This document shows, one piece after another, positions 14,492-57,448 of a stretch of 64,000 bases of DNA. Every line of letters starts with the position of its first letter. Position 1 is the first letter of the stretch. The stretch comes from Chloroflexia bacterium (GTDB lineage Bacteria > Chloroflexota > Chloroflexia > DTKN01), in the NCBI GenBank assembly GCA_034436115.1, contig DAOTVY010000015.1, positions 19,276-83,275 on the forward strand, read 5' to 3'. The translations under genes were made by a program, and so were the position numbers. Below the pieces are notes generated by a model. It was not told the DNA's origin. It ran no database searches and saw nothing but the letters and a program-made list of their open reading frames with translations.

Positions 14492-14504
14492 GTCTCACCT
14501 CGGT

Positions 14505-14545: not shown

Positions 14546-14561
14546 TTGCAGCGGATCACAC

Positions 14562-16343: not shown

Positions 16344-16560
16344 GGCAGCGACCTCCTTACAGTGAAAAAATTCCTTCCGGCGTTCGTCGCCAGATCTGCA
16401 CGGGCAACCTTCGTCCTGTGGCTCGACCACCTCCTTTCATGGACTGCGGACCGCCCTGTGTCCGCGACATCCTGCCCGGAAACAGGCGGAGATCCCTTGC
16501 GTGATCCTCTCGCCCCACGGCCTTGGGAAGCTGAACACCCCACCACGCATTCCCCATCTT

Positions 16561-16589
16561 ATTGTAACCGATTTCAGCCGGAAAATCAA
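16561..16589 (-). promoter_or_regulatory. Promoter of the ThDP enzyme operon
   Basis: TTGATT-17-TACAAT, implying a 5' UTR of about 210 nt. Confidence 0.6.
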
Positions 16590-16605
16590 GATCCCACGGC
16601 CCTGT

Positions 16606-16634
16606 TTGACAGACAAGCCACTCTTGGATAGGAT
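16606..16634 (+). promoter_or_regulatory. Promoter of the deoxynucleoside kinase
   Basis: TTGACA-17-TAGGAT. Confidence 0.7.
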
Positions 16635-16679
16635 GGATACAGCCCGATCGGGATGGGTAGGCCAGGCCAGGAGGAAGCC

Positions 16680-17321: not shown

Positions 17322-17469
17322 ATTCCCGGTACCGCTACATACCTCCGTGGGGAAGGCGTATGCCGGCCGTTGGCCGCGCGCGCCGCAGCCGACCATCCCT
17401 GGATCTCTGCATACGATAGAATCGGCCCGGAACAGTGGATGGAGGCAAACGCGGAGCGAGGGGTACGCC

Positions 17470-17649
17470 ATGGAAGCACCTCTGATCGCGATCTCTCTCC
17501 TGTTGCTCGTGGCCCTGGCCGTCAGCACCCCGGAACGGGACGACCAGGAAGAGCCGGACGAAGCCGGGGACGTGCGGAGCAGAGCCCGGGATCGCGCGCG
17601 GCTGGCCCTCGGTGTGCTCCGCCGTCAGCTGGACGAGCAGTCGCGGTAA
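17470..17649 (+). CDS. Small protein with N-terminal hydrophobic anchor (59 aa)
   Basis: ATG 17470 behind GAGGGG; MEAPLIAISLLLLVALAVST followed by an acidic and a basic stretch; a GC hairpin (17648-17670) follows the stop. Confidence 0.5.
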   Translation: MEAPLIAISLLLLVALAVSTPERDDQEEPDEAGDVRSRARDRARLALGVLRRQLDEQSR

Positions 17650-17696
17650 GGCGCCCCGTACGGGGGCCTTCCCGGCTGCGGCGACCGACGGGCCAT

Positions 17697-17725
17697 TTGC
17701 AGCGCTTCTCTCGATATGCTATACT
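17697..17725 (+). promoter_or_regulatory. Promoter of the glmS operon
   Basis: TTGCAG-17-TATACT with extended TG, about 45 nt before the ATG. Confidence 0.7.
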
Positions 17726-17774
17726 GGTGTTTGGTGCAGCTTAGCCTGCGCCACGCCCTTTTCGGGAGTTCAGC

Positions 17775-43423: not shown

Positions 43424-46303
43424 GTGAAAGCAGCCGGGGTGGTCGTACTCCTCGTCCTGCTGGGGGCGCTCGCGTTAGCCTGGGCAGCCGGTGATCTCGC
43501 GCCTCGTGCTCCAGCGGACACCCCTTGCGCCCCCCTGGAGCTTCCTACACCCCTTCCCAGCGACGAAGCCGCACTCCGGGCGGCGATGGAAGGGGCCCTC
43601 CGTGCTTGGGCAGCAGCCCATCCCCACAGCAAGCCCCTCCGCCTCGGCCTCGTCTGGGCAGAGGCGGACTGGGCCGCCGGGGAAGTGCACGTCGCTTTTC
43701 CCGACACGTATAGCAGCGAAGGGGCGCTGCTGTTGGCCGAAAGGGCGGCCGAAGGCTGGGAGGTACATTTCCCCGGGGAGCCGTCGTACCTAGCACTCCT
43801 GGAGCGTGGCCCTGCGCGCCACCTACCGCGCCCAGCGTTGGAGGCCCTGCGCGCACAGAGCGGGCCAGCCGTGGGGGACACGAGCGGCCTCTACTACCTC
43901 CCCTACTCCGCCGGTACCTCGGTGCTGGTCACCTGTGTCGATTGCTACCCCGGCCACTTTCCCAGCGTCGACCTGTATAGCTTGGGGGATCGCATCCTGC
44001 GCGCTGCCCGGGACGGGACGGTGGCTGCCTGGCGGGATGTGGGGGATTTCTGCTGCTGCCAGTCGGGCTGCGGCGTTTGCAACAGTTACCTCGTGTTGGA
44101 CCACGGGGATGGCGAATATTCCGCCTACCTCCACTTGGTTTCAGGGAGCATCCCCGAACCGCTCCGCCAGATCGGTGCCTTCGTACCACGCGCGACGGCC
44201 ATCGGCATCGAGGGCGATGTCGGCTATAGCTGCGGCAGCAACCGGCCGGAGGTGGGATGCGGCAGCTTTCTACCGACCCCGGGGCAGGGCTGCGGGCGCC
44301 ACGTGCACTTTGAGGTCCGCGATGCCCCGTACCCCTACGGCCAGCGCCTTCGACCGCGCTTTCAGGACGTTTACGAGCAGACAGAGCCACCCACCTACTA
44401 CCTGGAGGAAGGGCGGATTTATGTCTCGGGAAACCTTCCCCCCAGCCCAACCCCTCTCCCTACCCCAACACCGACCCCTGCGCCCACGCCGACCCCAGGG
44501 GCATGCAACCCGCCTGCCGGCAGCGAGGGGGTCTATCTCTTCAGCGAAGCGCGGTTCTGCGGGTATTTCCACCCGTACCTGGTTTCCGCCCCTGCGATCA
44601 CCACCCCATCTCCCCTGAATGAAGGCGTGTGGTCGATCTCCCTCTTCGGGCCCTATACCGCCACCCTCTTTACCGCGCCGGACTACCAGGGCATTCGGGA
44701 AACGTTCCTCGACGGCGACGAGGACCTTTCGGATAACCCCATCTCGACCGAGACCGCTTCCTTACGCGTGCAGCTGGCGGAATGCCCCGTGATCAGCCCA
44801 GGCCTCGTGCTCTATACCTCTTCCGGGTACAGCGGCGCCTGCCGGCGCTTCGGGGAAAGCGACCCGGACCTGGAAGACGATGGCTTGGCGGGGAGCGTGC
44901 GTTCGCTTCGGCTGGTCGGGCCTTATACCGTTACGCTCTACGCGGGCGCGGGGTATACCGGGCCGGCCGAGACGTTTGCCAGCGACGTCCCAGATCTCCT
45001 GGAGCATCCTCTCGGGCGCAACATCCGCTCCTTTCGCCTGGGCTCCCGCCTATGCAATCCTCAGGCCGAAGGGGTGACCGTATTCGCCTTGCCCAGCTAT
45101 GCCGGGGCCTGCCGGACGTTGGTTACCGCCACTGCGGACCTGTCCTCTACCTTGGGGATGATCCCTCGCTCGATCTGGCTGCAAGGCCCCTTTCACGCAG
45201 TCCAGTACGCGGCGCCCGGCTTTACCGGCACGCAGGAACTCCTGCTGGTGAGCGACCCAGACCTGACCGACAACCCGGCCTTTCCGGCGCGCTCGCTGCA
45301 GGTGGTGGGCGGTTCGTGCCTGCCGTGGCGTGAAGGGGTCACGCTCTTTGCGGGATCGGGGTTTAGCGGCGGCTGTCTCACCTTGCGCACAAGCGATCCA
45401 GACCTCTCCGCGAGCGGGTTGGCGGGACATGTGGGATCGATCCGGATCCGTGGACCATACCGGCTGACGCTTTACGCCCTTCCCGGGTTCGCGGGACCCG
45501 CGGAGCAGATCGACCGCTCGGACCCCGACCTTTCGGACAATCCGGTGGGCGTGCAGGCGGCATCCGTGCAACTGGAGCGGATCCCCTGCAACGCTGGTCA
45601 CGGCGGGGTCACTCTCTGGGCACAGCCCGGTTACGACGGCGTTTGCACCACGCTTCGCAGCGACGACGCCGATCTCGGGAACGATGGAATCGGCCGGGAG
45701 AACGCCTTCTCCTTGCGCATCATCGGTCCCTATAGCGTAACCCTGTATTCCGGCGTGGGCTTTACGGGAACACCGGCGGTTGCGCTGGGTGACCTCCCGG
45801 ACCTGGGCAACACCCCGTTCGCCGGTTCCGTCGCCTCCGCGCGCGTACGGCCACTCGGCGTGACACCGCGCCTATGGAACGACCTGCGCCCGTTTGCGCT
45901 CCCGCTTCAGGTTTCCACCCATCCGGCTTGGTATCTCCAGGAAACTGGATATACCTCCAGCAGCCCCGACGACCCCGTGTTGAGCTGCACGGGCAGCAGC
46001 GGGACCCGCACCCTTTGGTATCGGGTATCGGGGAACCAGAGCGCGGTGTTGCACGCGCAAGGCATGGGCCTTGCCGGTCTGGCCCTAGCCCTGTGGACGG
46101 AAGGGCCGGCCGGCCTGCGGGAACTCGCTTGTGGGTCGGGCGAAACGCCCACCCTGCAAGCCGTGATGCTCGCGGGAAGGCCCGTATGGCTCGAGGCCAG
46201 TATTGCTGGGCCTGGAAGCGGCACCCTCGCGCTCCAGGTGTGGCAGAGCCGCCCGTTCGCGATCTACCTGCCCCTGGTCGTACGCGGCCCATCGAGCCCC
46301 TGA
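43424..46303 (+). CDS. Secreted M23 peptidase with five beta/gamma-crystallin-like domains and a C-terminal YLPLV motif
   Basis: Signal peptide; GHFPSVD, LDHGDG..SAYLHL, HVHFEVR; PT-rich linker; ten repeats of G/Y-V-T-L-Y/F...Y/F-x-G...D-P-D-L...S-x-R; ends IYLPLVVRGPSSP. Confidence 0.85.
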   Translation: MKAAGVVVLLVLLGALALAWAAGDLAPRAPADTPCAPLELPTPLPSDEAALRAAMEGALRAWAAAHPHSKPLRLGLVWAEADWAAGEVHVAFPDTYSSEGALLLAERAAEGWEVHFPGEPSYLALLERGPARHLPRPALEALRAQSGPAVGDTSGLYYLPYSAGTSVLVTCVDCYPGHFPSVDLYSLGDRILRAARDGTVAAWRDVGDFCCCQSGCGVCNSYLVLDHGDGEYSAYLHLVSGSIPEPLRQIGAFVPRATAIGIEGDVGYSCGSNRPEVGCGSFLPTPGQGCGRHVHFEVRDAPYPYGQRLRPRFQDVYEQTEPPTYYLEEGRIYVSGNLPPSPTPLPTPTPTPAPTPTPGACNPPAGSEGVYLFSEARFCGYFHPYLVSAPAITTPSPLNEGVWSISLFGPYTATLFTAPDYQGIRETFLDGDEDLSDNPISTETASLRVQLAECPVISPGLVLYTSSGYSGACRRFGESDPDLEDDGLAGSVRSLRLVGPYTVTLYAGAGYTGPAETFASDVPDLLEHPLGRNIRSFRLGSRLCNPQAEGVTVFALPSYAGACRTLVTATADLSSTLGMIPRSIWLQGPFHAVQYAAPGFTGTQELLLVSDPDLTDNPAFPARSLQVVGGSCLPWREGVTLFAGSGFSGGCLTLRTSDPDLSASGLAGHVGSIRIRGPYRLTLYALPGFAGPAEQIDRSDPDLSDNPVGVQAASVQLERIPCNAGHGGVTLWAQPGYDGVCTTLRSDDADLGNDGIGRENAFSLRIIGPYSVTLYSGVGFTGTPAVALGDLPDLGNTPFAGSVASARVRPLGVTPRLWNDLRPFALPLQVSTHPAWYLQETGYTSSSPDDPVLSCTGSSGTRTLWYRVSGNQSAVLHAQGMGLAGLALALWTEGPAGLRELACGSGETPTLQAVMLAGRPVWLEASIAGPGSGTLALQVWQSRPFAIYLPLVVRGPSSP

Positions 46304-46511
46304 TCCGGCGGCACCGAGGAGAGAGGTGTCTGCGCCCAGGCAGCTGCTGGGAGAGCTTTTGACAGAGGGTGCCCGTTCTAACGGCAAGCGGATCTTTTTG
46401 CGGGCTCAGCCTGCCGTGAGCTTCCGCCCGCCTGGGAACACCGGGTGACGGAGGACAGGCACGGGTCAACGAGGAGCATCGGGTTAGACAGCACCTGCAT
46501 CGCGCACGCGT

Positions 46512-46540
46512 TTGACAGCGGGCAAAGCCTGTGATATCAT
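46512..46540 (+). promoter_or_regulatory. Promoter of tRNA-Asp
   Basis: TTGACA-17-TATCAT with extended TG. Confidence 0.85.
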
Positions 46541-46550
46541 ACGCGGTGCT

Positions 46551-46624
46551 GGGGCCGTGGTGTAGAGGCCTAACATGCAGCCCTGTCAAGGCTGAGATCG
46601 GGGGTTCGAATCCCCTCGGCCCCG
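46551..46624 (+). tRNA. tRNA-Asp (anticodon GTC)
   Basis: Acceptor GGGGCCG/CGGCCCC, anticodon arm CAGCC-CTGTCAA-GGCTG, T arm GGGGG-TTCGAAT-CCCCT; CCA not encoded. Confidence 0.97.
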
Positions 46625-46625
46625 C

Positions 46626-46657
46626 AAGGGCGGGCCTTTATGGCTCAGCCCTTTTTT
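46626..46657 (+). terminator. Terminator after tRNA-Asp, overlapping the citE stop
   Basis: AAGGGCGGGCC/GGCTCAGCCCTT hairpin followed by a T tract. Confidence 0.6.
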
Positions 46658-47522
46658 CTTCCTCCAGTTGCTCGGCCAGCGCCAGGAGCCGCCGCGCGCG
46701 CTCGACGATCGGCCGATCGATCATCTTGCCGTCGAGCGCGATTGCCCCGCGTCCCTCGCGCTCGGCCTCCTCAAACGCCGCCAACACGCGACGCGCCTCC
46801 GCGACCTCCGCTTCGCTTGGGGAAAGCAGGCGGTTCACCACCGGGACCTGTCGAGGATGGATCACCTGCTTGGCCCGATACCCCAGCTGCCGCCCGACGG
46901 TCGTGTTGTGCACCAGGCCTGCCTCGTCGTCGATCCGCGGATAGACCATGTCGATCGGCTGCACCCCAGCGGCGCGGGCCGCAAGGACCACCAGTTGCCG
47001 TGCCACCAGCAACTCCGTGGCTTCCTCGGTACGCATCATCCCGGCATCGAGCGAGAGATCCTCCCCGCCGAAGATCAGCCCGACCACCCGCGGATCCGCT
47101 GAGGCGATGGCGTAAGCATTCAGTACGCCCAGCGCGGTCTCGATCGTCGCCAGGATCCCCAGCGGCTCGGCGATCCCGCGTTCCTTCTCTGCCTCGGCCA
47201 GCCACGCGATCACCGTCCGCAACCCCTCGGCATCCTGCACCTTGGGAAGGCAAAGCCCGGCCAAGCCCGGCTGCACGACGGCCGCGATGTCCTCCTGGGC
47301 AAGTCCGCTGCCGTGGGCGTTCACGCGGACAAAAACGGTCCGCGCACCCTCGAGGATCTGTGGCAGCATCTCGCGCACCAGGCTGCGCGCGGCCGCCTTT
47401 TCGGGAAGGGGGACCGAGTCCTCCAGGTCAAGGATTAGCGCATCCGCACCGAGGCTGGGTGCCTTGGCGAGCATGTTAGGCCGGTTTCCCGGGACATACA
47501 GGAGCGTTCGCAGCAGGCGCAT
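46638..47522 (-). CDS. citE: CitE-family (citryl-/malyl-/citramalyl-CoA) lyase
   Basis: RTLLYVPGNR, DALILDLEDSV, FVRVN, LPKV, TIETALG, FGGED, IHPRQV, GKMIDRP; ATG 47522. Confidence 0.92.
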   Translation of the reverse strand: MRLLRTLLYVPGNRPNMLAKAPSLGADALILDLEDSVPLPEKAAARSLVREMLPQILEGARTVFVRVNAHGSGLAQEDIAAVVQPGLAGLCLPKVQDAEGLRTVIAWLAEAEKERGIAEPLGILATIETALGVLNAYAIASADPRVVGLIFGGEDLSLDAGMMRTEEATELLVARQLVVLAARAAGVQPIDMVYPRIDDEAGLVHNTTVGRQLGYRAKQVIHPRQVPVVNRLLSPSEAEVAEARRVLAAFEEAEREGRGAIALDGKMIDRPIVERARRLLALAEQLEEEKRAEP

Positions 47523-47526
47523 GGGG

Positions 47527-47745
47527 CTACTCCTCGTAGAGCTTGTGCAGGCGCAGCGCGCCCGATGGGCACTGCTCCAGGCACAAACCACACAGCGTGC
47601 ACTCGTCCTCGTTCGCCGGATCGGTCAGGAGTTCGTTTCCCTCCAGACGGAAAACGTCCACCGGGCAAACGCGCACGCAAGTTCCACAAGCGTCTGGCCG
47701 GGGGCAGCGCGCGTGGTCCACTTCCAGGCGGATGAACAGGCCCAC
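47527..47745 (-). CDS. 2x[4Fe-4S] ferredoxin
   Basis: GTG 47745: CPRPDACGTCVRVCP and CTLCGLCLEQCP; 72 aa. Confidence 0.9.
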   Translation of the reverse strand: MGLFIRLEVDHARCPRPDACGTCVRVCPVDVFRLEGNELLTDPANEDECTLCGLCLEQCPSGALRLHKLYEE

Positions 47746-47746
47746 T

Positions 47747-48661
47747 TCAGACCTCCTTGGCTGCCCGATCGAGGGCCTCGCGTACGAGCGCGGGCACCTC
47801 CGAGAGGCGCTGAGCCACGAGCACCCCGGCCGCGCGCAGAGCACGCTCCTTGCTCTCCACCCGGCCACGGTCCCCTTCCACGAGCACCGCGGCGTGCCCG
47901 AAGCGTTGTCCGGGCATCCGGTCCACAAATCGGCCAGCCAGGAAGGCCACGACCGGCAACCGAGGACGGTGGGTAGCCACATACTCGGCCAGCGCTTCTT
48001 CCTGCACACCGCCCGGTTCTCCGAACACAACCACGGCTCTTGTGTCGGGGTCGCCCTCCAAGAGGGGCATCAGGTCGACGAAGGTGGTCCCGACGAGTGG
48101 GTCTCCTCCGATGCTCACGCAGATGCTCTGGCCAAGGCCCGACTGCGTGAGGAGGCTCGCCAGTTCGGTGGTCATCCCGCCGCTTCGGGAAAGCACTGCC
48201 ACGGGGCCCGGGGTATAAGCGCGTCGTACATCTTGCGCCGGGCCCCCGACCATGCCGATCTTGACCTTGCCCGGAAGGAGGATTCCCAAGCTGTTGGGGC
48301 CGATGATCCGGGCACCTCGGTGCCGCGCCCAGGCGATGACCTCGGCAACATCTCGCCGGGGAATGCGCTCCGTGACGATGACCAGCAGCCTCAGCCCGTG
48401 TTCCAGCGCCTCCAGCGCCGCTTCCCGAACGGCCGCCGGCGGGACGCTGATTACGGATGCCTCAGCCGGGTGCTCCCGAAGCGCCTGCGCCAGGCTATCG
48501 TACACCGGTACGCCGTAGACCGTGGTACCGCCCTTACCCGGGGTTACCCCGGCAACCACCTGGGACCCATAGTCCAGCATGTGCCGGGTAAAGGTCACGG
48601 CTTCGCGCCCGGTGATCCCTTGGACGACGATACGGGTGGATGGATCGGCCAGAACGGTCAT
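47747..48661 (-). CDS. ADP-forming acid--CoA ligase alpha subunit (SucD/CcsB family)
   Basis: IVVQGITGRE, VAGVTPGKGG, IIGPNSLG, LSRSGGMTTE, SIGGDP, phospho-His FGHAA; ATG 48661 overlaps the beta-subunit stop. Confidence 0.9.
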   Translation of the reverse strand: MTVLADPSTRIVVQGITGREAVTFTRHMLDYGSQVVAGVTPGKGGTTVYGVPVYDSLAQALREHPAEASVISVPPAAVREAALEALEHGLRLLVIVTERIPRRDVAEVIAWARHRGARIIGPNSLGILLPGKVKIGMVGGPAQDVRRAYTPGPVAVLSRSGGMTTELASLLTQSGLGQSICVSIGGDPLVGTTFVDLMPLLEGDPDTRAVVVFGEPGGVQEEALAEYVATHRPRLPVVAFLAGRFVDRMPGQRFGHAAVLVEGDRGRVESKERALRAAGVLVAQRLSEVPALVREALDRAAKEV

Positions 48662-49860
48662 GCCGAACGACTCCTTTCCACCGCCAGGCGTGCCGCCTCG
48701 TCGATGGAAACGCTGCGGTCGCAGAAAGCGATCCCATAGCGGCGCAGGATCTTGGTGCCCTCGTCTTCCCACGCGCCCGGGATGCGAAAGACGGCGATCG
48801 TTTCGCTCGGATCGAGGCCCAGATCCACGATTCCGGCGATGACGCCGCGTGCCACCAAGTCAACCCGCGTGTTGCTGACCACGTTCATGATGACGGCCAG
48901 GCGACGCACGCCAGGTTTGGAGAGGATGTGGCGCGTCAGCGCACGGATCTTGCGCACGCTCGGGTTGCCTCCGATCTCGCAGTAGTTCGCCGGCCGGCCC
49001 CCATGGGCCAGGATCGCGTCGAACACTGTCAGGCTCGCACCGCCTCCTCCGATGAGCAAGCCCAGGTTGCCATCGAACTCGACCACCCGCCCGGCCACAC
49101 CCCGGTGGTCCATCGCATCGATCTCCGCCGCCGCCTGCTCGAAGGGGGTCGGAGGGCGGACAGCCGTGGGCCGCGGGACAATGCCATAGACCTTGCTGAG
49201 CTCCGGATGGCGCCCGAGCGCTTCATCCTCCAGCTCGATGTGGGCGTCGAGCGCAAGGAGCTTCCCCTCGCCCATCCGTCGCAGCGGGTTGACTTCTGCT
49301 ACGGTGGCGTCGAAGCGATAGAACAGCTCGTAGAGCCGGCGAACTGCGTCCCCGAAAGCGAGCAGGTCCGGGCCCTGCAGCGACAGGGCGGCTGCGACCT
49401 CCCGGCCCTTGTAGCCGCCGAACGGCCAAGCCATGTCGACCGGGATACGCACCAGGCCCGTGGGTGCCTCCGCGGCTGCCTGCTCGACGTCCACGCCACC
49501 CTCCAGACTGGCCAGGATGACGGGCGACCGGAGGTACGAGTCGTAGGTCACCGCGAGGAACCACTCCGGCCCGTCCGGCACCGCGGCCTCGACCAGCAGC
49601 TCCTCCACGCGATAACCCAGGAGCTCCGCGCCGAGGAGCTCCGCCGCGACCTGCCCCGCCTCCGTAGCCGTGTGGGCGGAGCGCACACCGCCGGCTTTCA
49701 TGCGCCCACCGCGAGGCACCTGGATTTTGAGCACCACCGGCAAACCCAGGCGCTCCGACGCTTCCTGGGCTGCCTCGGGTGTGCGCACACGCACGCCTTC
49801 AGGGACAGGGATCCCTTGCTCCTTCAACAGCACTTTCGCTTCCCATTCACACAACCGCAT
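48658..49860 (-). CDS. ADP-forming acid--CoA ligase beta subunit (SucC/CcsA family, citryl-CoA-synthetase-like)
   Basis: MRLCEWEAKVLL, KIQVPRGGRMKAGGV, EVNPL, ALDA; substrate loop IGGGGASL, ANYCEIGGNP, ILSKPGV, NTRVD; ATG 49860. Confidence 0.88.
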   Translation of the reverse strand: MRLCEWEAKVLLKEQGIPVPEGVRVRTPEAAQEASERLGLPVVLKIQVPRGGRMKAGGVRSAHTATEAGQVAAELLGAELLGYRVEELLVEAAVPDGPEWFLAVTYDSYLRSPVILASLEGGVDVEQAAAEAPTGLVRIPVDMAWPFGGYKGREVAAALSLQGPDLLAFGDAVRRLYELFYRFDATVAEVNPLRRMGEGKLLALDAHIELEDEALGRHPELSKVYGIVPRPTAVRPPTPFEQAAAEIDAMDHRGVAGRVVEFDGNLGLLIGGGGASLTVFDAILAHGGRPANYCEIGGNPSVRKIRALTRHILSKPGVRRLAVIMNVVSNTRVDLVARGVIAGIVDLGLDPSETIAVFRIPGAWEDEGTKILRRYGIAFCDRSVSIDEAARLAVERSRSA

Positions 49861-49862
49861 CT

Positions 49863-50579
49863 TCACGCTCCGAGGCTTCCAGACTTGCCCTGGACAGCCG
49901 GACGATCCCCCAGCAGCTCGCGCCCCCGCGCCACAAGGCGGGTCAGCGGGATCTGCTTGGGGCAGCTGGCCTCCCACCGCTGGGCAGCCTCTGGGGAAAG
50001 GAGGCCTGCCTGCTCCAGGACCCACAGGCGCACCGGACCGAGGAGATCCCTGGGATCCAGAGCAAAGCGGACGCCCTGGGCCAGCGCCGCCGGATTGGGC
50101 GCCGTGCTGCCACCGGCACCGGCCTGGCATGCCCCGCACAGGATGCACAACGCCCCATCCATGGCCGCTTCCACCGTCGTTTGCTCCATCGTTCCGCCAT
50201 AGTCGGGACGGCGCAGAAGCCAGGGGAGAAAAGCGCGCAGCGATTCGAAAAACGGGTCGATGTCCACCACCAGGTCTCGCAGGACAGGAAAGCCCGGAAG
50301 AGGGCCGATGGAAAGGGAGCCCGAAGGATCGAGGACTTCCGGCACCCGGGTCATACAGGCGAGGCGGGGATGGCCGTTGATGGCGACGGCGCAGGAACCG
50401 CAGATGCCGCTGCGACAGGATCGACGAAAGGCCAGGGTGGCGTCGTGCAGGTCCCGGACCTCGAGCAAGAGATCGAGCACGGTCGAGGTCGGGGAGATCG
50501 TCAACCGGAAGCATTGCCAGTACGGCTCGCGGTCCCGGGTGGGGTCAAAGCGTTGTACCAGGAGGTCGAGCGGGGTCAT
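49863..50579 (-). CDS. sdhB: Succinate dehydrogenase/fumarate reductase iron-sulfur subunit, atypical
   Basis: FRRSCRSGICGSCA...LAC ([2Fe-2S]), VLRDLVVD, CILCGAC, SCPKQIP; [3Fe-4S] cysteines absent; ATG 50579. Confidence 0.88.
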   Translation of the reverse strand: MTPLDLLVQRFDPTRDREPYWQCFRLTISPTSTVLDLLLEVRDLHDATLAFRRSCRSGICGSCAVAINGHPRLACMTRVPEVLDPSGSLSIGPLPGFPVLRDLVVDIDPFFESLRAFLPWLLRRPDYGGTMEQTTVEAAMDGALCILCGACQAGAGGSTAPNPAALAQGVRFALDPRDLLGPVRLWVLEQAGLLSPEAAQRWEASCPKQIPLTRLVARGRELLGDRPAVQGKSGSLGA

Positions 50580-50580
50580 C

Positions 50581-52260
50581 TCAGTACTTCCTCCCTGCCG
50601 GCAGGAAACGGGTGATCGACACCGGTCGTTTTTCCAGCACGGGGCCAGCGGGCGAACGACGCGCGATGGTGTGGACCAGCCAGTGCTCGTCGGCGCGCTC
50701 CGGCCAGTCGGTGCGACAGTGGGCCCCGCGGCTCTCGCAACGGTAGAGCGCGCTCGCGGCAATGACTCGGGCAATCTCCAGCAGATGCCCGCACTCGAGG
50801 TACTCTACCACGGCATAGTTGAAACGGGGAGGCCCTGGATCGAGGCGGATTCCCTGGAAGGTTTGCTGGAGGCGTTCGATCTCCTGGCAGGCGGATTCCA
50901 ATCCAGAGGCATCCCGGAAAATCCCCACCTGGTCGGTCATCAGCTGGTTCAGCGCCTTGCGCACGGCGGCGACTGGCTCCCCACGGGCGCCGGAGCAGAT
51001 GCGCCGCAATTCCGACTCCCAGCGGTCGACCGCCCCCTGGATGCTCTCCGCACTCCCCCAAGGCCGTTCGCGGGCAATTTCGGCCGCCCGGCCCCCTGCA
51101 CGCTTGCCAAAGACCCAGGCATCGAGCAGCGAGTTTCCTCCGAGCCGGTTGGCGCCATGGACGCTGACATTGGCGCACTCCCCGGCGGCAAGCAGGCCCG
51201 GGATCTCCGTCTCTCCCCAGGTGTTGCAACGGATCCCGCCCATACTATAGTGCGCGGCCGGCTCGACCGGCAGGGGATGGTGCGCGATGTCAATGCCGGC
51301 GTAAGTGAGCGCCAGCTGCCGTACCTGAGGAAGACGGGCATCGATCTGATCCGCACCCAGATGCGTGAGGTCGAGGGCGACGTAGCCTTCCCCCAACCCA
51401 CGCCCTTCCAGGATCTCGCGGGCGATCGCCCGCGAGACAACATCCCGGGGGGCGAGTTCCATCGCCTCAGGCGCATAGCGCGCCATGAAGCGCTCCCCAT
51501 TGCGGTTCCGAAGGTAGCCTCCCTCTCCCCGGGCCGCCTCGGAGATCAGGATGTTCTTACCGTATAGGCTTGTCGGATGGAACTGCACGAACTCCATGTC
51601 CGCCAGGGGCGCCCCGGCGCGGTAGGCGATGGCCACCCCATCGCCGGTGCAGGCATGGGCGTTGGTCGTCTTGGCATAGACCCGACCATAACCGCCTGTC
51701 GCGAGCACAACTGCTTTGGCGCGGAACCCGTCCAAACGGCCGTTCGCCAGATCCAGGACGACCACACCTTGACAGCCCCGGTCGTCCACCACGAGATCGA
51801 GCAGATGTTGCTCGGGGTAAACGCGTACGCCCCGGCAAAGCAGCTGCTGGTAGAGGCTATGAAGCGCCAGGTGCCCGGTGTAGTCGGCCGCAAAGCAGGT
51901 ACGCGGGAAGCCGGCACCACCGAGGGAGCGCTGGGCGATCCGGCCATCCGGCGTGCGGGAGAAGAGCACGCCCATCTCCTCCAGCTCGGCGATCGCCGCA
52001 GGCCCTTCCTGGCAGAGGATCTCAATCGCTTCCTGATCTCCCAGGTAATCGCTTCCTTTCACCGTGTCCAGGATATGGCGCTCGATGCTGTCGTCCGCCC
52101 CCAACGCGGCGTTGATCCCGCCCTGGGCGGCGCCGCTGTGGGAACGGGTGGGATAGAGCTTGGAGACGACGCCGACGTCCGCGCCGGCACGCAGTGCCTC
52201 CAGTGCTGCCCGCAGGCCGGCCAACCCGGCACCGATGATCAGCACCTCGTGGTGATGCAT
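50581..52260 (-). CDS. sdhA: Succinate dehydrogenase/fumarate reductase flavoprotein subunit
   Basis: [22 protein letters not shown] (covalent-FAD His), [46 protein letters not shown]. Confidence 0.93.
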
Positions 52261-52385
52261 ATGCCCTCCTGACGCGCGTTGGAAGCCGGTGACCCCCTTG
52301 CACGCACGCGCCCGAGGAGCTCAAGCAGTGGAGGGCGGCCAGGACCCCGGCCACCCGGGAGCCTCAAAGCCGCCCTCCACAGCGA

Positions 52386-52424
52386 CCCCGCAACCCTGCC
52401 CCGCGTGGGCGGATGCTTGCGGGG
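52386..52424. repeat. GC-rich inverted repeat after the lactonase gene
   Basis: CCCCGCAA (52386-52393) / TTGCGGGG (52417-52424); no U tract on the minus strand. Confidence 0.75.
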
Positions 52425-52427
52425 ATC

Positions 52428-53213
52428 CTACTCGTAGTACTCCGGCGCGTGCTTCAGCTTCGGCCAGGAATCGGGGTCGTGGCTGGTAATCACCTTCACC
52501 CCGTAGACCCGGCGCAGGTTCCGGATCCGCTTGACCGACTTGACCACATCCGGCGGGCTGTAGACCAACCCCGGCAGGACATCCTCGTTCAGGATCTCCT
52601 CGGTGTAGATCAGGTCGCCGGTCAGGAGCATCGGGCCGCTCTTCTCGAGGTTCACCAGGAGCGACTGGTGGCCCGGAGTATGGCCCGGGGTAAAGAGGAT
52701 CTTGATCTTCCCGTCGCCGAAGACGTCGTACTCGTCCTCCTGGAAGCCCTCGAGCAGGTACCAGTTCAGGTAAGGCTTGTCAAAGTCGGCGCGGATGTAA
52801 GCCCCCCTCTGGTAAAAGTCCGGCACGTAGGCGTACTGCAGCTCGGCCCGCTGCACAAAGTAGATGGCGTTCGGGAACGCACCGCAGCCGCCGGCGTGGT
52901 CCAAATGCAGATGGGAGAAGATGACGTGGGTGATGTCCTCCGGCTTGACCCCGATCTTGGCGAGCTGGTTAACCACATACTCGTCTTCCCGCATCACGGG
53001 GTCGTAGGCCGCGACTACCGCCGCGCCCCAGTGCTTGATCTTGTCGCGGGCAACTTCCAGCGCATTGCCCGTGTCGAAGAGCACCTTGCCCTTTTCGTGC
53101 TCGATGAGATAGAAGGGCACCGGGACGTCGAACGGCACGCCGACTCCGCGGCCCATGGTGAAGAGGTGTTTCTGGCTCTTGAGGATCCCGCACTGGAACA
53201 TGTAGAGCTTCAT
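52428..53213 (-). CDS. Lactonase of the AiiA/AttM(BlcC) metallo-beta-lactamase family
   Basis: VLFDTG, SHLHLDHAGG (HxHxDH), TPGHTPGHQS, LLTGDLIY (AiiA-type Asp and Tyr), VITSHDP; ATG 53213 behind AGGAG. Confidence 0.88.
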   Translation of the reverse strand: MKLYMFQCGILKSQKHLFTMGRGVGVPFDVPVPFYLIEHEKGKVLFDTGNALEVARDKIKHWGAAVVAAYDPVMREDEYVVNQLAKIGVKPEDITHVIFSHLHLDHAGGCGAFPNAIYFVQRAELQYAYVPDFYQRGAYIRADFDKPYLNWYLLEGFQEDEYDVFGDGKIKILFTPGHTPGHQSLLVNLEKSGPMLLTGDLIYTEEILNEDVLPGLVYSPPDVVKSVKRIRNLRRVYGVKVITSHDPDSWPKLKHAPEYYE

Positions 53214-53306
53214 CGCACTCCTCCTTCTCGCATCCGCCGGGTCTTCCCCGGGGCAACCGGGAAACTGCCACCGGGTTGCCACCCCATTGTCAGCCTCCAG
53301 ACCTCC

Positions 53307-53798
53307 TTACGCCTTCTTGGGCGCGAGCCACGCGGGGATCATGACCGACACGTAGCCGAGCAGGATACCGACAAAGAGCCCGATCAGCGTGTAGAGGATG
53401 TTCTGGAAGGAGAAGAAATTGTCGGTCTTGAACTGGCCGAAGGTGAACGCGAAGAAGGCGGCGAAAGCACAGAAGGCAGCACTGGCCAGTTCCAGAGGCT
53501 TCCAGTTCATGAGGAGCACGAGCACCAGGGCGCAGATCCCCACGAGGATCGAGATGCCTACGAAGCCAAGTTCGCCTCCGAGCTTGAGCCCGTAGAGCGC
53601 CACGTGCCCGAGAAGCACACCGAGGAGCATGGGGAAGCCGGCCTTGAGGATCGCCGCGGCGTTGCTGCCCGCGACGAAGAAGAAGGCCCACCCGATAAAG
53701 CCCGCCCACGTGGGGAGCTTCAGTTTGATGGACACGTAAGTCCACAGGGCGGCCAGGATACCGATGCTGATGGACAGCGCCACGTACTTGAGGCGCAT
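53307..53798 (-). CDS. DUF1097-like membrane protein
   Basis: 163 aa, five to six TM helices; ALSISIGILAALW, WAGFIGWAFFF, LIGLFVGILLGYVS. Confidence 0.7.
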   Translation of the reverse strand: MRLKYVALSISIGILAALWTYVSIKLKLPTWAGFIGWAFFFVAGSNAAAILKAGFPMLLGVLLGHVALYGLKLGGELGFVGISILVGICALVLVLLMNWKPLELASAAFCAFAAFFAFTFGQFKTDNFFSFQNILYTLIGLFVGILLGYVSVMIPAWLAPKKA

Positions 53799-53822
53799 CT
53801 CTCCTCCTCCTTGCGCTGAGAA

Positions 53823-55106
53823 CTACCAGAGCACCATCGACTCGCGGAAGATCCGGGCCAGGTCCTCCTTCGTCACCGGGCGCGGGCAGCCAACCAGCAA
53901 ACGCTGCTGTTTCCAGCCGCCTTCTACCAGGCCAGGGATATCGTCCTCCGTATATCCCAACGCCGCAAGGCCGTTCGGGCATCCGATGTCCCGCATCAGC
54001 TGGATCAGCGCCTCGGGTAGCTTCATCGCGGCCTCCATCGGCGAAAGCCCGGAGATGTTGGCTCCAAGCAGCTCGGCGATGCGGGCGTGCTTCTCCGGGT
54101 TCGTCGGAGCCGTGAAGCGGAACGCCGCGGGCGCGGTCAGCACGACGGACAGCCCGTGCGGAACCAGGGCTTCCTCTACGGGGTACTCGCTCGGCTTCCA
54201 CTCACGGATCATGCCCGCGATCGGGTAGCCCAGGGCGTGCGGGATGTGAACCCCTGCGTTCCCGAAGCCGATGCCCGCAAAGGTCGCTGCCATAGCCATG
54301 TAGCTGCGCGCCTCGAGGTCATTGCCATTGTAGCAGGCCCGGCGCAGGTACTTCCCGACCCACTCGATCGCCTTCTCGCTCCAAAGGTCCGCGATCGGGT
54401 TCGACCCCACATAGGCCGGCCGCAAGCTTGGATCCTCTGGTTTCGGCCGCGTGTTGTAGGGTTTGCTCGTGAACGACTCGGCAGCGTGGGTCAGCACATC
54501 CAGCCCGGTAAAGGCCGTGACCTGAGGCGATTGCGTGATCGCGTTCAGCGGGTCGACGATGGCCATTGTCGGGCGGATGTTCACGTGCGAGATGCCCGTT
54601 TTCACCTTCAGCTGGAGGAGGTCCAACACGATCACCGGTGTCGTTTCGCTGCCGGTGCCGGTGGTTGTGGGAAGCGCAAAGTGGGGCTTTAGCGGACCGG
54701 GAACGAGCTTTCCCTGGCCGATCGGTTTGTTGATATAATCGAAAAGATCGGCGGGGTAGGTGTTGAAGAGGTTCATCGCCTTGGCGGTATCGATCGTGCT
54801 CCCGCCGCCCAGGGAGACGAAGGCGTCGTAGACCTCGTCCCCGACCGCCTGGATCGCCGCGCGGAAGGAGACGTCTGTGGGCTCGATGTGCACCTCATCG
54901 TAGATGCGCAGCTGGATCCCCTCGCGCTCGATGATCTGCTTCACGCGGTCGATCAGCCCATACTGCCAGAGGTTCTTATCGGCCACGAGCAGCACTTTCT
55001 TGGCGCCGAGGATCCGCAGTTCGTAGCCCAGTTCCTCGGTAGCCCCGATCCCAAACTTGAGCTTGCCCATGGAGAGAGGGATGACGGTTTCTAGCTCGAC
55101 GGACAT
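53823..55106 (-). CDS. Hydroxyacid-oxoacid transhydrogenase (ADHFE1/HOT-type Fe-alcohol dehydrogenase)
   Basis: KFGIGATEELGY, EPTDVSF, GGGSTIDTAKA, PTTTGTGSETT, GLDVLTHAAES, RPAYVGSNPIAD, GNAGVHIPHALGYPIAG, VPHGLSV, QQRLL. Confidence 0.88.
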   Translation of the reverse strand: MSVELETVIPLSMGKLKFGIGATEELGYELRILGAKKVLLVADKNLWQYGLIDRVKQIIEREGIQLRIYDEVHIEPTDVSFRAAIQAVGDEVYDAFVSLGGGSTIDTAKAMNLFNTYPADLFDYINKPIGQGKLVPGPLKPHFALPTTTGTGSETTPVIVLDLLQLKVKTGISHVNIRPTMAIVDPLNAITQSPQVTAFTGLDVLTHAAESFTSKPYNTRPKPEDPSLRPAYVGSNPIADLWSEKAIEWVGKYLRRACYNGNDLEARSYMAMAATFAGIGFGNAGVHIPHALGYPIAGMIREWKPSEYPVEEALVPHGLSVVLTAPAAFRFTAPTNPEKHARIAELLGANISGLSPMEAAMKLPEALIQLMRDIGCPNGLAALGYTEDDIPGLVEGGWKQQRLLVGCPRPVTKEDLARIFRESMVLW

Positions 55107-55231
55107 CGCTGCACCTCCTGACTGGAGCTTATATCCGCGTGCGATGCCCCAACGGCACCGCCCCGAGCTTGCCGGGCTCCTGAACCATCGGGCACCTGCC
55201 TCCTTCCGGCTCCTCAGCCCTGAAACTCAGG

Positions 55232-55292
55232 GCACCTATCGATCACCGCAGACACTCGTGCCACGCCGATTGCCGCGACGCACCTATCGATC
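55232..55292. repeat. 13-bp direct repeat upstream of the transhydrogenase gene
   Basis: GCACCTATCGATC at 55232-55244 and 55280-55292 (48-bp period). Confidence 0.9.
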
Positions 55293-55365
55293 CATTCTCC
55301 CTTGGGGCTCCCTGGAGGCATCCACCAGGGTCTGCCCGGCGGCCATACCTGCAAAGGGATATAGG

Positions 55366-57111
55366 TTAGGACGATGGCCTCTCCCAGCCACGCCGGTCAT
55401 AGTACTCGCGGACCATTTTCTCCAGTTCCTCGGGGGTCAAGCGCTCGCCGCTGGGCTGGATCGGTTCACGCAAGAGGCGCTCCGGGAGCGTGTCGTCGGC
55501 CGGAACCATGCCCTCACGCAGGTTGTAGGATCGGATCAGGTTGGCGATGCGCGCCGAAAGGGCCTGCAACCCAGCCTTGTCGAGCTCCAACCCCGTCAAG
55601 CCCCGGATGATGCGGGGCAGGTCGTCCCAGCCGATCATATCCCGGTAAAAGCGGCAGAAGATCAGCGTATCAAAGACCGTGTGGCGGTCTTCAAAGTCGA
55701 GCACCAAGTCCGCCTTGCCCTCAGCCGTCGTCCGATCGACCCAACCGGCCAGCTCGGCCTTGTACACGGTAGCCCGCAGATGACAGGCACCGCGATCCGA
55801 GATCGCATAGGCCAGGCCCATGCCTTTGAGCCCACGGGGGTCATACCCAGCCGGCTCGAGCCCCTTGACGTGGATCGCCAGTTCCTCCAGCCCCAGCTGC
55901 CGCGCGGCCGAACGCACGCCTCCGGCAAAGATTTCCCCTATGCCCTCGCGCGCGGCGACCTTCCGCAGCAACTCGGCGATCCCGTCCACATCTCCATAAT
56001 CCAGCCCGAGGTCGAGGACACCCCGACGACAAGCCTCGATTGCCAGGCCCGCGACGTTGCCCCCGGTGATCGTGTCCAGCCCCAGGCGGTCGCACAAGTC
56101 GTTCAGGTAGAGGATTTCGGCGAGGTCGTCCACCCCGCACAGGCCGCCGAACGCGTAGATGGTCTCGTATTCCGGGCCCTCGACCGTCAGCCCGGCGTGC
56201 CGACCGTCCGGAACCGTAACCAGCTTGCCACAGGCAAAGAAGCAGCGGTAGCAGGCCTTGGGACGAGGCTGGAAACGCTCGACCAGTGCATCGCCGCTGA
56301 TCTGCGCCCAGTGGGGAACCGTGCCCGCAGACCAGTAGTAGCTGGGGAAAGCACCGGCGCGGTTCGTGAGCGCCACCACCATCGGTGTCCCGAACTTCCG
56401 GTAGTTGGCCGCGCCGGCGTCCGTCTTGCCCCGTTCCCGCAGTTCGCGGTCGTAGGCGGCGATGTCCTCAGGGTCGAAAAGCTGGCACTCTGCCCGGCCG
56501 TGGAAGACGATGCCCTTGACCTTCTTCGAGCCGAGCACGGCCCCCATACCGACGCGCCCGGCCTGCCGGCCGCGGTCGTTTCCCACCAGGGCAAAGCGCA
56601 CCAGGCGCTCGCCGGCGGGCCCGATGACCATCGCCTTCGCGCCGGGGATCCCCACATCCTTCTCCAGTGCCTCCTCCGCCGCATAGGCGTCCAACCCCCA
56701 GAATGGCCGCGCATCGTGAAAGGTTACCCCAGCGTCCGAGATCTCCAGATAGATGGGGTCGCTCGATGCCCCCCGGATGACGATCGCGTCGTAACCCGTC
56801 GCCTTGATCTGGGGAGCAATGTGGCCGCCAGAAGCCGACTCGCCAAAGATGCCCGTCTGCGGGGATTTGCTGATCAGGATGTAGCGGCTTGCCGGAGCCA
56901 GGACCGTGCCGGTGGCAGGACCGGTGGTGACGATGAGCGGGTTTTCGGGGGAAAGGGGATCCACTCCACGAGGGGCATACTGGGAAAGGAGATACGCACC
57001 GAGGCCCTTCCCACCCAGGTAGTCTCTCAGCACCTCCTCCGCCACGGCCTCCGCCCGAAAGTTCCGTTCCGACACGTCCACGTGCAGGATCCGTCCGTGG
57101 AAGCCCAGCAT
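55366..57111 (-). CDS. Aldehyde:ferredoxin oxidoreductase (tungstopterin AOR family)
   Basis: GGKGLG, KSPQTG, ESASGG, IGPAGE, GMGAVLGSKKVKG, CYRCFFAC, EGPEYET, GLDTI, RGACHL; ATG 57111 behind GGAGG. Confidence 0.93.
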   Translation of the reverse strand: MLGFHGRILHVDVSERNFRAEAVAEEVLRDYLGGKGLGAYLLSQYAPRGVDPLSPENPLIVTTGPATGTVLAPASRYILISKSPQTGIFGESASGGHIAPQIKATGYDAIVIRGASSDPIYLEISDAGVTFHDARPFWGLDAYAAEEALEKDVGIPGAKAMVIGPAGERLVRFALVGNDRGRQAGRVGMGAVLGSKKVKGIVFHGRAECQLFDPEDIAAYDRELRERGKTDAGAANYRKFGTPMVVALTNRAGAFPSYYWSAGTVPHWAQISGDALVERFQPRPKACYRCFFACGKLVTVPDGRHAGLTVEGPEYETIYAFGGLCGVDDLAEILYLNDLCDRLGLDTITGGNVAGLAIEACRRGVLDLGLDYGDVDGIAELLRKVAAREGIGEIFAGGVRSAARQLGLEELAIHVKGLEPAGYDPRGLKGMGLAYAISDRGACHLRATVYKAELAGWVDRTTAEGKADLVLDFEDRHTVFDTLIFCRFYRDMIGWDDLPRIIRGLTGLELDKAGLQALSARIANLIRSYNLREGMVPADDTLPERLLREPIQPSGERLTPEELEKMVREYYDRRGWERPSS

Positions 57112-57166
57112 CGTTGCCTCCTGTTGTTCAGGGCAGCCAGAAACCGGAAGGTGCTTAACGGCTTTA

Positions 57167-57195
57167 AATATAGCACAGGAGGCGGAGAAAAGCAA
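57167..57195 (-). promoter_or_regulatory. Promoter of the AOR cluster
   Basis: TTGCTT-17-TATATT with extended TG. Confidence 0.65.
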
Positions 57196-57381
57196 CCGCC
57201 AGGATGATCGAGCAAGCGCCTGCGTCGGCGTTGCTTTCCGAAAACGTTTGCACTGCGGGATATTTCTCACACTTTTTCGTGCTTTCCGCGGATCTTTCAC
57301 CGGCCCGTGACCCGCTCGTTCCGAAGACAGGATCTCGCCCTGGCCGGCCCGCGCAACCGGTCCGTGCCACAGGCTGTGCCG

Positions 57382-57413
57382 TTGCACGAGCCTTGTCGCA
57401 GTGCTATACTGCG
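57382..57413 (+). promoter_or_regulatory. Promoter of the XPB-like helicase with an inverted repeat over the -10
   Basis: TTGCAC-17-TATACT with extended TG; CGCAGT-N5-ACTGCG at 57397-57413. Confidence 0.7.
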
Positions 57414-57448
57414 TGCGCAATCGGACTCTGCCTGAAGTCCGGGGGGAC

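Follow-up and report, generated by a model that had tools for sequence, protein, structure and literature searches.

The genomic stretch analyzed here, referred to as the window, comprises 64,000 nucleotides (nt) of a Chloroflexia bacterium (GenBank assembly GCA_034436115.1, contig DAOTVY010000015.1, positions 19,276 to 83,275 of the forward strand). On its minus strand lies an operon headed by two genes, sdhA and sdhB, which code for the flavoprotein and the iron-sulfur subunit of a complex II-type enzyme. These two proteins and their relatives with the same cysteine pattern are called family SdhA and family SdhB below.

sdhA, 50581-52260, minus strand: flavoprotein subunit, 559 amino acids (aa)
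sdhB, 49863-50579, minus strand: iron-sulfur subunit, 238 aa

The ATG of sdhB is located 1 nt past the stop codon of sdhA. In SdhB, the cysteines of the [2Fe-2S] site (C55, C60, C63, and C75) and of the [4Fe-4S] site (C145, C148, and C151 in the motif CILCGAC, and C206 in the motif CPK) are present, with an assignment to the individual clusters that follows established complex II structures. When SdhB was aligned to the solved Sdh2 of M. smegmatis (6LUM_B), CILCGAC-QAGA faced CILCACC-TTSCP at the first motif and LLSPEAAQRWEASCPK was aligned with VWRCRTTFNCTEACPR at the second, so that all three [3Fe-4S] cysteines are replaced. The CP/W stretch of the quinone site is absent as well. This alignment confirmed the claim of a first-pass annotation of the same DNA that SdhB keeps the [2Fe-2S] and [4Fe-4S] ligands and has lost all three ligands of the [3Fe-4S] cluster. 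Pfam recognized only the N-terminal Fer2_3 domain (112 bits) and no Fer4 domain, and the protein scored 149 bits against TIGR00384 (cut-off 88). An AlphaFold2 model based on the family alignment had a high confidence (pLDDT 90.5), which extended to the remodelled C-terminal helices; it superimposed on E. coli SdhB (1NEK_B) with a TM score of 0.80. Judged by its sequence, the subunit is clearly predicted to bind only a [2Fe-2S] and one [4Fe-4S] cluster.

A homologue search of 5.8 billion proteins returned 689 matches, which were ranked as 90%-identity clusters (P numbers). All of the 97 closest clusters (P0001-P0097, 38-78% identity) contained CxxCxxC without the next Cys-Pro, lacked the Cx5C motif and kept the final CP(K); a canonical SdhB first appeared at rank 99 (P0099). 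The invariant cysteines in an alignment of 47 sequences were exactly eight, namely the ligands of the [2Fe-2S] and [4Fe-4S] clusters. Both datasets agree on a consistent cysteine loss and contradict a decay specific to the copy in the window. Among 1.84 billion 50%-identity representatives, a search by profile detected 7,481 SdhB-like sequences, of which about eight form the family (243-325 bits, followed by a drop), indicating that the family with two clusters is compact and rare. That the cysteine loss is a conserved family trait, and not a product of decay or chance, is well supported by these comparisons.

The closest relative was found in a Chloroflexia metagenome-assembled genome (MAG) with 78% identity and an identical order of ten genes. 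Other carriers are Pelotomaculum and further Bacillota, Desulfoscipio geothermicus DSM 3669, Desulfofundulus kuznetsovii with related isolates, and members of the Syntrophobacteraceae, the Desulfobaccales, the Limnochordales, and the Acidobacteria; at a higher level, the closest protein clusters come from Chloroflexia, Desulfotomaculia, Desulfobacterota, Limnochordales, and Acidobacteria. Around residue 162 of SdhB, the window reads ...STAPNPAAL... and the database sequence P0001, listed as 100% identical and located on a 61.6-kb JGI contig, reads ...STAPKPAAL..., a difference of a single residue, by which the contig and the window are distinct assemblies. A scan of a genome collection with the full-length family alignment was dominated by canonical and type-E-like SdhB, and the family was represented only by the loci L007-L015 and L018. 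A metagenome scan with a C-terminal alignment of 8 sequences gave 8 loci, of which L098 was the informative one. Many Dehalococcoidia, Nitrospira, Magnetococcales, and Methanosarcinales loci (L016, L019, L021-L086) encode a long SdhB (~320-550 aa) with the motifs CxxCxxCxxxC[T/S] ... CxxCxxCxxxCP, that is, with a second [4Fe-4S] cluster replacing [3Fe-4S], and with C-terminal extensions; these proteins were rejected as family members because the second cluster is fully kept, and are classed as type-E or Tfr-like. Outside the core family, the fourth cysteine of ferredoxin motif 1 is missing from a few more SdhB lineages (P0135, P0144, P0146, P0158, P0166, P0167, P0197, and P0237), some of which have no Cx5C cysteines either. 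The loss of the quinone-side cluster may thus have arisen more than once.

The flavoprotein subunit contains the Pfam domains FAD_binding_2 (390 bits) and Succ_DH_flav_C (119 bits) and scored 731 bits against TIGR01812, above the cut-off of 567. Alignment to E. coli SdhA (1NEK_A) bore out the earlier claim that the His/Arg residues of the dicarboxylate site and the FAD histidine are retained: H41 is equivalent to H45 (covalent FAD), H228 to H242, S240/E241 to T254/E255, R272 to R286, H337 to H354, and R372 to R399, so that the full dicarboxylate site is kept. All these residues are invariant among 16 family SdhA sequences. For the identification of signature residues, these 16 were compared with 15 SdhA sequences from loci with a canonical or type-E SdhB. 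At position 113, which corresponds to E. coli F119, 15 of the 16 family proteins have Leu (L113 in the window) and all 15 comparators have Phe. K197, G234, N236, and N364 are invariant within the family; the comparators have Gly at position 236 in 14 of 15 cases (E. coli G250) and Cys at position 364 without exception (E. coli C391). Two further signature residues, E333 and A335 (E. coli T352), are close neighbors of the substrate histidine. Family SdhA is well supported as a clade of its own that co-evolved with family SdhB. Annotation of the enzyme as a NadB-like amine oxidase was rejected in view of the retained covalent-FAD histidine, a TIGR00551 score of 424.6 bits (under the cut-off of 452.75), and the translational coupling of sdhB.

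A substitution at the same position is known from the laboratory. According to two preprints from 2025-2026, E. coli Sdh oxidizes methylsuccinate to mesaconate, and selection for growth on methylsuccinate yielded the sdhA mutation F119L; the distance of F119 from the bound substrate analogue is 3.9 Å, and its replacement improves kcat/Km for methylsuccinate about twofold (bioRxiv 10.1101/2025.11.12.688011; 10.64898/2026.01.16.699985). From the natural equivalent of F119L and a gene context pointing to C5-dicarboxylates, methylsuccinate/mesaconate is probably the preferred couple of the family enzyme, and fumarate/succinate would probably still be accepted.

The gene context in the window consists, downstream of sdhB, of four genes:

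sucC-like gene, 48658-49860, minus strand: beta (ATP-grasp) subunit of an ADP-forming acid-CoA ligase, 400 aa
sucD-like gene, 47747-48661, minus strand: alpha subunit of the acid-CoA ligase, 304 aa
ferredoxin gene, 47527-47745, minus strand: predicted 2x[4Fe-4S] ferredoxin, 72 aa, 8 Cys, Pfam Fer4 families
citE/CLYBL-like gene, 46638-47522, minus strand: acyl-CoA lyase, 294 aa, HpcH/HpaI fold (Pfam HpcH_HpaI)

The six minus-strand genes in the order sdhA-sdhB-sucC-like-sucD-like-ferredoxin-citE-like are separated by gaps of only +4 to -4 nt and thus form one translationally coupled operon. The start of the sucD-like gene overlaps the stop of the sucC-like gene by 4 nt, and the ferredoxin gene has a GTG start located 1 nt past the sucD-like stop. 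Both ligase subunits have the architecture of succinyl-CoA synthetase (ATP-grasp_2; CoA_binding and Ligase_CoA). However, the sucC-like product stayed below the cut-offs for succinyl-CoA ligase beta (243 and 239 bits vs. 370 and 376), as did the sucD-like product for the alpha subunit (293 bits vs. 353 for TIGR01019, and 288 vs. 336 for a second model). The sucC-like product further scored 177 bits against the malate-CoA ligase beta model (cut-off 604), gave a weak match to the ATP-citrate-lyase domain Citrate_bind (Pfam), and matched, among solved structures, T. aquaticus succinyl-CoA synthetase beta with 178 bits and the large subunit of H. thermophilus citryl-CoA synthetase with 161 bits. 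The lyase was recognized by HpcH_HpaI (194 bits) and scored below cut-off against the NCBIfam models citE (258 bits, cut-off 443) and RipC/Ccl (167 bits, cut-off 375). Its top-scoring solved relative was human CLYBL (180 bits), which is a citramalyl-CoA lyase, and the gene product is proposed to be an (S)-citramalyl-CoA lyase. The ferredoxin contains the motifs CX6CX2CX3CP and CX2CX2CX3CP and shares 76% identity with its counterpart in L007.

No sdhC- or sdhD-like gene is present in the window operon. The neighborhoods of relatives were read in about 20 lineage-level contexts, with partial annotation of L008-L018 and L092-L099 (a BLAST comparison with a reference set, supplemented by selected Pfam scans), and no membrane anchor of the SdhC/D, SdhE, or CCG type was found in the annotated parts. 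The earlier description of an anchorless enzyme with a 2x[4Fe-4S] ferredoxin in its operon is thus confirmed in the window, and the missing anchor extends to the annotated parts of the other contexts. These data bear on the possibility that the genes represent a decaying redundant copy, or that an SdhAB dimer docks on an anchor encoded elsewhere and uses quinone. Such an anchor gene could lie outside the 64 kb of genome in view, and a DUF1097 membrane protein, the sole membrane protein of the cluster, is encoded three genes upstream. Yet the pattern is identical in 97 clusters from at least five phyla, the reading frames are intact, eight cysteines are invariant, the signature residues of family SdhA have co-evolved, and the DUF1097 protein is not a relative of SdhC/D. 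In complex II geometry, moreover, the gap between [4Fe-4S] and quinone without the [3Fe-4S] relay exceeds the usual electron-tunnelling limit of ~14 Å. Decay or a distant anchor is considered very improbable. DUF1097 was also tried as a cryptic anchor and rejected, as it occurs in Chloroflexia loci only, has a single histidine, and is separated from sdhA by a lactonase gene.

The commonest neighbor of sdhAB is a gene of the MmgE/PrpD family, which is adjacent in about 11 of the 20 contexts. The encoded proteins are not true PrpD (41-59 bits vs. a cut-off of 950). One member of this protein family was described as a methylsuccinate isomerase that interconverts the (S) and (R) forms of the free acid, and all known substrates of the family contain a succinate backbone (Gonner et al., 2025; PMC12290011). 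A CitE-SucC-SucD block adjoins sdhAB in the window, in the Chloroflexia locus L007, in Desulfoscipio (L009), in the Desulfobacterota MAGs L010 and L013, and in Desulfofundulus (L098), and the sucC-like genes next to sdhAB in these five relatives are orthologues of that in the window. In L015, L088, L089, and L094, non-orthologous replacements were found, with a family III CoA-transferase or an AMP-ligase for CoA activation and an HMGL-like lyase. Four contexts, namely L089, L090, L091, and the P0091 contig, have adjacent genes for class I fumarase-type hydratase subunits. In L090, an Acidobacteria MAG, and on the P0091 contig, sdhAB stands at the end of an itaconate/methylsuccinate-type cluster with the order acyl-CoA dehydrogenase, family III CoA-transferase, Ich-like MaoC hydratase, Ccl-like lyase, fumarase alpha/beta, sdhAB. 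The Ich-like MaoC protein scored 206 bits on the RipB/Ich model, and the best model of the lyase was RipC/Ccl. By gene content, this cluster is the itaconate/methylsuccinate gene set known from Pseudomonas and Cupriavidus (Gonner et al., 2025), supplemented by a mesaconase-type hydratase and sdhAB.

Some other features of these neighborhoods were recorded. In several anaerobes (L005, L010, L013, and L015), the cluster is bordered by sigma-54 activators. Just downstream of the sdhAB cluster of Desulfoscipio geothermicus, after a sigma-54 activator, a second and distant SdhA-like flavoprotein is encoded (L009, 13329-14933; 34% identity), with no adjacent SdhB seen. In Bacillota, an OYE/BaiCD-type Fe-S flavoenzyme of the enoate-reductase family recurs beside the PrpD-family gene and sdhAB (L005, 4415-6349; L100, 3218-4158), a hint that another C=C reductase works on the same pool of substrates.

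Against this background, family SdhAB has about an even chance of being a soluble oxidoreductase that works without quinone, is coupled to ferredoxin, and interconverts (methyl)succinate and (methyl)fumarate within a C5-dicarboxylate pathway. It would be a cytoplasmic two-subunit member of the complex II family, in which the electron wire from FAD via [2Fe-2S] to [4Fe-4S] terminates on the face that holds [3Fe-4S] and the anchor in canonical enzymes. At this end, a soluble iron-sulfur or flavin partner would dock in place of the [3Fe-4S] cluster and quinone, and the 72-aa ferredoxin is the proposed partner in the window. Mesaconate and (S)-citramalate would be interconverted by a class I fumarase/mesaconase, presumably encoded elsewhere in the genome; the SucCD-like ligase would convert citramalate, ATP, and CoA to citramalyl-CoA, which the CitE/CLYBL-like lyase could cleave to acetyl-CoA and pyruvate. 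In relatives, the adjacent MmgE/PrpD-family protein may supply the correct methylsuccinate stereoisomer or isomer.

A farther-reaching version of this proposal, put forward tentatively and with some doubt, is that the family represents a natural free-acid methylsuccinate:ferredoxin (or F420/NAD(P)H) oxidoreductase and would fill the redox gap in an anaerobic metabolism of C5-dicarboxylates that has not been described so far and could take two forms. In an itaconate/mesaconate fermentation, part of the substrate would be reduced to methylsuccinate as an electron sink and part would be cleaved via citramalyl-CoA to pyruvate and acetyl-CoA. The Pelotomaculum-type cluster (enoate reductase, PrpD-family protein, SdhAB, ferredoxin) could instead constitute a redox-neutral loop, in which the enoate reductase would make methylsuccinate, the epimerase would invert it, SdhAB would re-oxidize it to mesaconate, and the ferredoxin would shuttle electrons between both enzymes.

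The main rival is a plain soluble fumarate reductase, in which reduced ferredoxin (or NADH or F420H2 via other partners) would reduce fumarate to succinate in the cytoplasm. The SucCD-like ligase would then be a succinyl-CoA synthetase continuing the reductive branch, and the PrpD-family and CitE-like genes would serve separate reactions. Every canonical fumarate/succinate residue is kept in SdhA, the order sdhA-sdhB-sucC-sucD suits a branch from fumarate via succinate to succinyl-CoA, and the four contexts with adjacent class I fumarase genes are in line with it. In addition, the soluble fraction of P. thermopropionicum has NADH:fumarate oxidoreductase activity, attributed in the accessible text of the respective paper to the anchorless SDH2 with an FrhB partner (PMC10308238), and the order FrhB-SdhA-SdhB is common to SDH2 and the Desulfofundulus family member. 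This activity was, however, obtained from crude extract and assigned to SDH2 by inference, and SDH2 (PTH_1490) is only a putative member of the family. A fumarate reductase also leaves unexplained the exchange of Phe119 for Leu and the other signature residues near the active site, the recurrent PrpD-family and CitE/HMGL lyase neighbors, and the placement in clusters of the Ict/Ich/Ccl/Mcd type; furthermore, the SucC- and SucD-like proteins fall below the curated succinyl-CoA ligase cut-offs. A plain fumarate reductase is considered unlikely, if less so than the other alternatives.

The same genes could also belong to a C6 tricarboxylate route, in which SdhAB would interconvert tricarballylate and aconitate, the PrpD-family protein would (de)hydrate aconitate/citrate, and the SucCD-like enzyme as citryl-CoA synthetase and the CitE-like enzyme as citryl-CoA lyase would yield acetyl-CoA and oxaloacetate. 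The weak citrate-binding match of the sucC-like protein, its nearly equal scores for H. thermophilus citryl-CoA synthetase and succinyl-CoA synthetase, and citE as best NCBIfam model of the lyase are compatible with this route, as are the tricarboxylate substrates of true PrpD enzymes and the TctC/TctB tricarboxylate transporter genes on the P0023 contig. On the other hand, all citrate-related scores are under the family cut-offs, the PrpD-family neighbors are not true PrpD, the change from Phe to Leu frees space for a methyl but not for a carboxymethyl group, and the Acidobacteria-type cluster is a C5 set for itaconate/methylsuccinate. A literature search for a link of tricarballylate to such genes gave no match. 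The tricarboxylate route is regarded as improbable.

Several observations weigh against a (methyl)succinate/(methyl)fumarate oxidoreductase coupled to ferredoxin as the function of family SdhAB. Apart from position 113, the dicarboxylate site of SdhA is fully canonical, and Leu at this position is compatible with fumarate/succinate, since E. coli F119L still oxidizes succinate and the site is otherwise canonical. The subgroup represented by L087, in which only a PrpD-family gene accompanies sdhAB, retains Phe at position 113. Neither a hydratase nor a PrpD-family gene is present in the 64-kb window, and the closest solved relatives of the PrpD-family neighbors are B. subtilis 'IRG1' and iminodisuccinate (IDS) epimerase. 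An ordinary ferredoxin of low potential cannot be reduced by the oxidation of a C-C bond of the succinate type, and the P. thermopropionicum activity mentioned above also counts on this side. All functional steps proposed for SdhAB are, finally, inferred by comparison.

Succinate-type couples are near 0 to +30 mV, so reduction would be thermodynamically favored with partners of the ferredoxin, F420, or NAD(P)H type. In this reductive mode, mesaconate or fumarate and two electrons would yield methylsuccinate or succinate, for instance to take up the electrons of ferredoxin that the aldehyde:ferredoxin oxidoreductase (AOR) encoded upstream would have reduced. For the catabolic cluster of the Acidobacteria type, oxidation is the more natural reading, and this direction would require a partner of unusually high potential. 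As the physiological direction, reduction is favored over oxidation by the narrowest of preferences. Regarding the 'fumarate (or analogue) reductase' suggested by the first-pass annotation, the words 'or analogue' fit the gene context and the exchange of Phe119 for Leu, whereas a plain fumarate reductase needs revising.

Within the cluster, a gene for a ferredoxin or another soluble redox partner was found in about 7-9 of the 20 contexts, and its type varied. The window and L007 contain a ferredoxin with 8 Cys, Pelotomaculum a 62-aa single-cluster ferredoxin directly 3' of sdhB, and L013 a Fer4-domain protein. In Desulfofundulus (L098), the gene directly before sdhA codes for a fusion of 405 aa, in which a 2x[4Fe-4S] domain is joined to the N and C domains of FrhB. 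A Flavin_Reduct protein is located directly 3' of sdhB on the P0023 contig, and a Cys-rich DUF1847 protein was detected in the Desulfoscipio cluster. Several contexts had no visible redox-partner gene, which makes ferredoxin linkage a recurring theme and not a rule. The previously suggested ferredoxin linkage thus stands as far as a soluble partner recurs; it is weakened by the varying partner type and by the fact that the ferredoxin in the window could equally serve the upstream AOR rather than SdhAB.

Compared with canonical complex II (E. coli 1NEK, M. smegmatis 6LUM), family SdhAB has the same covalent-FAD histidine and dicarboxylate site, with 490-504 bits between SdhA and its solved homologues, and SdhB shares the fold (TM 0.80) and the ligands of [2Fe-2S] and [4Fe-4S]. 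Unlike canonical complex II, it lacks the [3Fe-4S] ligands, the quinone-site residues, and an anchor, and it has family-specific residues near the active site, among them Leu in place of Phe119. The housekeeping succinate:quinone oxidoreductase (SQR) of Chloroflexus differs from it as well (PDB 9LAY; only 224 bits for the A and 23% identity for the B subunit). This structure, a weak match, was examined as a possible soluble relative and rejected, because the protein is an ordinary menaquinone-reducing SQR. Quinone-independent or periplasmic enzymes of the same flavoprotein superfamily are the methanogen thiol:fumarate reductase TfrAB, the L-aspartate oxidase NadB, Campylobacter Mfr, and the Eggerthella itaconate reductase IrdA. 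Mfr reduces mesaconate, keeps its clusters, and is Tat-exported; scores against the MFR models were far below cut-off. TfrB carries extra C-terminal cysteine-rich (CCG) domains, whereas the 238-aa SdhB matched the TfrB model NF004898 (488 positions) with 98 bits (cut-off 385) over the N-terminal 204 model positions only. NadB has no iron-sulfur subunit, and IrdA is a flavocytochrome-type single chain. According to the accessible text of PMC12290011, where this is cited, IrdA reduces itaconate to methylsuccinate.

An anchorless succinate dehydrogenase (SDH) is already on record in one syntroph: the accessible text of PMC10308238 describes P. thermopropionicum SDH2 (PTH_1490-1492) with a neighbor containing FrhB and 4Fe-4S domains, and its authors propose a cytoplasmic NADH-linked fumarate reductase. 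This arrangement of an anchorless SdhAB beside an FrhB protein with a 4Fe-4S domain corresponds to that in Desulfofundulus L098, and SDH2 is probably a family member because the gene order matches. The putative partner is a small ferredoxin in the window and FrhB in SDH2. In the accessible part of that paper, no mention was found of the loss of an iron-sulfur cluster, of a PrpD/CitE/SucCD context, or of the Phe119 position. A literature search on Desku_1352-1354 of Desulfofundulus kuznetsovii and on PTH_1490/1491 gave no match, and the literature searched contained no description of the two-cluster wiring, the pathway context, or a natural pocket of the F119L type.

The evolved E. coli SdhA F119L 'methylsuccinate dehydrogenase' has Leu at the same site as L113 of the window, and the authors of the preprints assemble a route from methylsuccinate via mesaconate and citramalate to an acetyl unit and pyruvate, the logic of which matches the proposal for the window operon. 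That enzyme is engineered, of the membrane type, and has three clusters; family SdhAB is natural, has further signature residues, and lacks the quinone end. The itaconate/methylsuccinate cluster of Pseudomonas and Cupriavidus (Ict, Ich, Ccl, Mcd, and Msi; PMC12290011) shares with the window-type clusters a CitE-type lyase, CoA activation, and an MmgE/PrpD-family protein. Dehydrogenation takes place there on the CoA ester by an acyl-CoA dehydrogenase, whereas family SdhAB is proposed to act on the free acid; the window has an ADP-forming ligase in place of the CoA-transferase, and no Ich.

Complex II is the textbook example of a three-cluster, quinone-linked enzyme, and a natural family in which the wire stops at [4Fe-4S] and soluble partners are exchangeable would show re-use of this module outside respiration. 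Its occurrence in C5-dicarboxylate clusters of anaerobes provides a concrete candidate enzyme, and this idea is directly testable because the family is present in the cultured Desulfofundulus kuznetsovii DSM 6115 and Desulfoscipio geothermicus DSM 3669. The coincidence of the natural Leu with the laboratory-selected F119L would be one of the rare examples of directed evolution apparently repeating what nature had already found. Synthetic methylsuccinate modules, which now use the E. coli mutant with its twofold improvement, could use a naturally specialized enzyme instead.

Upstream of sdhA, the following genes are located:

lactonase gene, 52428-53213, minus strand: AttM-like lactonase with metallo-beta-lactamase fold, likely 261 aa from an internal ATG
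DUF1097 gene, 53307-53798, minus strand: small membrane protein, 163 aa, one His
dehydrogenase gene, 53823-55106, minus strand: iron-containing alcohol or hydroxyacid dehydrogenase, 427 aa
AOR gene, 55366-57111, minus strand: aldehyde:ferredoxin oxidoreductase, 581 aa from MLGFHG..., a ferredoxin-reducing enzyme

The lactonase scored 335 bits against the AttM model (cut-off 390); it is kept with the cluster in L007, and a lactonase is also present in L010. Copies of the iron-containing dehydrogenase with 57-58% identity are encoded within the sdhAB cluster of the Desulfobacterota MAG L010, and AOR genes were also found in the L001 and L010 clusters, so that the lactonase, dehydrogenase, and AOR genes upstream of sdhA all recur in L010. 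There, the same enzyme types follow sdhAB-PrpD (12471-18261), together with an Iso_dh-family and a D-2-hydroxyacid dehydrogenase. In the window, AOR, iron-containing dehydrogenase, (DUF1097), and lactonase (52428-57111, minus strand) form a module for the conversion of a lactone via hydroxyacid and aldehyde to an acid directly upstream of sdhA; this module may provide the pathway with a compound of the (methyl)butyrolactone type.

A scan of 46200-57700 for promoters and terminators gave counts no better than those of shuffled sequences and was of no help for the operon limits; a sigma-70-like promoter match (11/12) is located at 46512-46540. The downstream end of the unit is marked by a convergent tRNA-Asp(GTC) gene (46551-46625, plus strand), 13 nt past the citE-like stop, and by the gene of a large secreted protein. 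The latter (43424-46303, plus strand), likewise convergent to the operon, codes for 959 aa with a Cys-rich N-terminal region and many repeats of ~90 aa.

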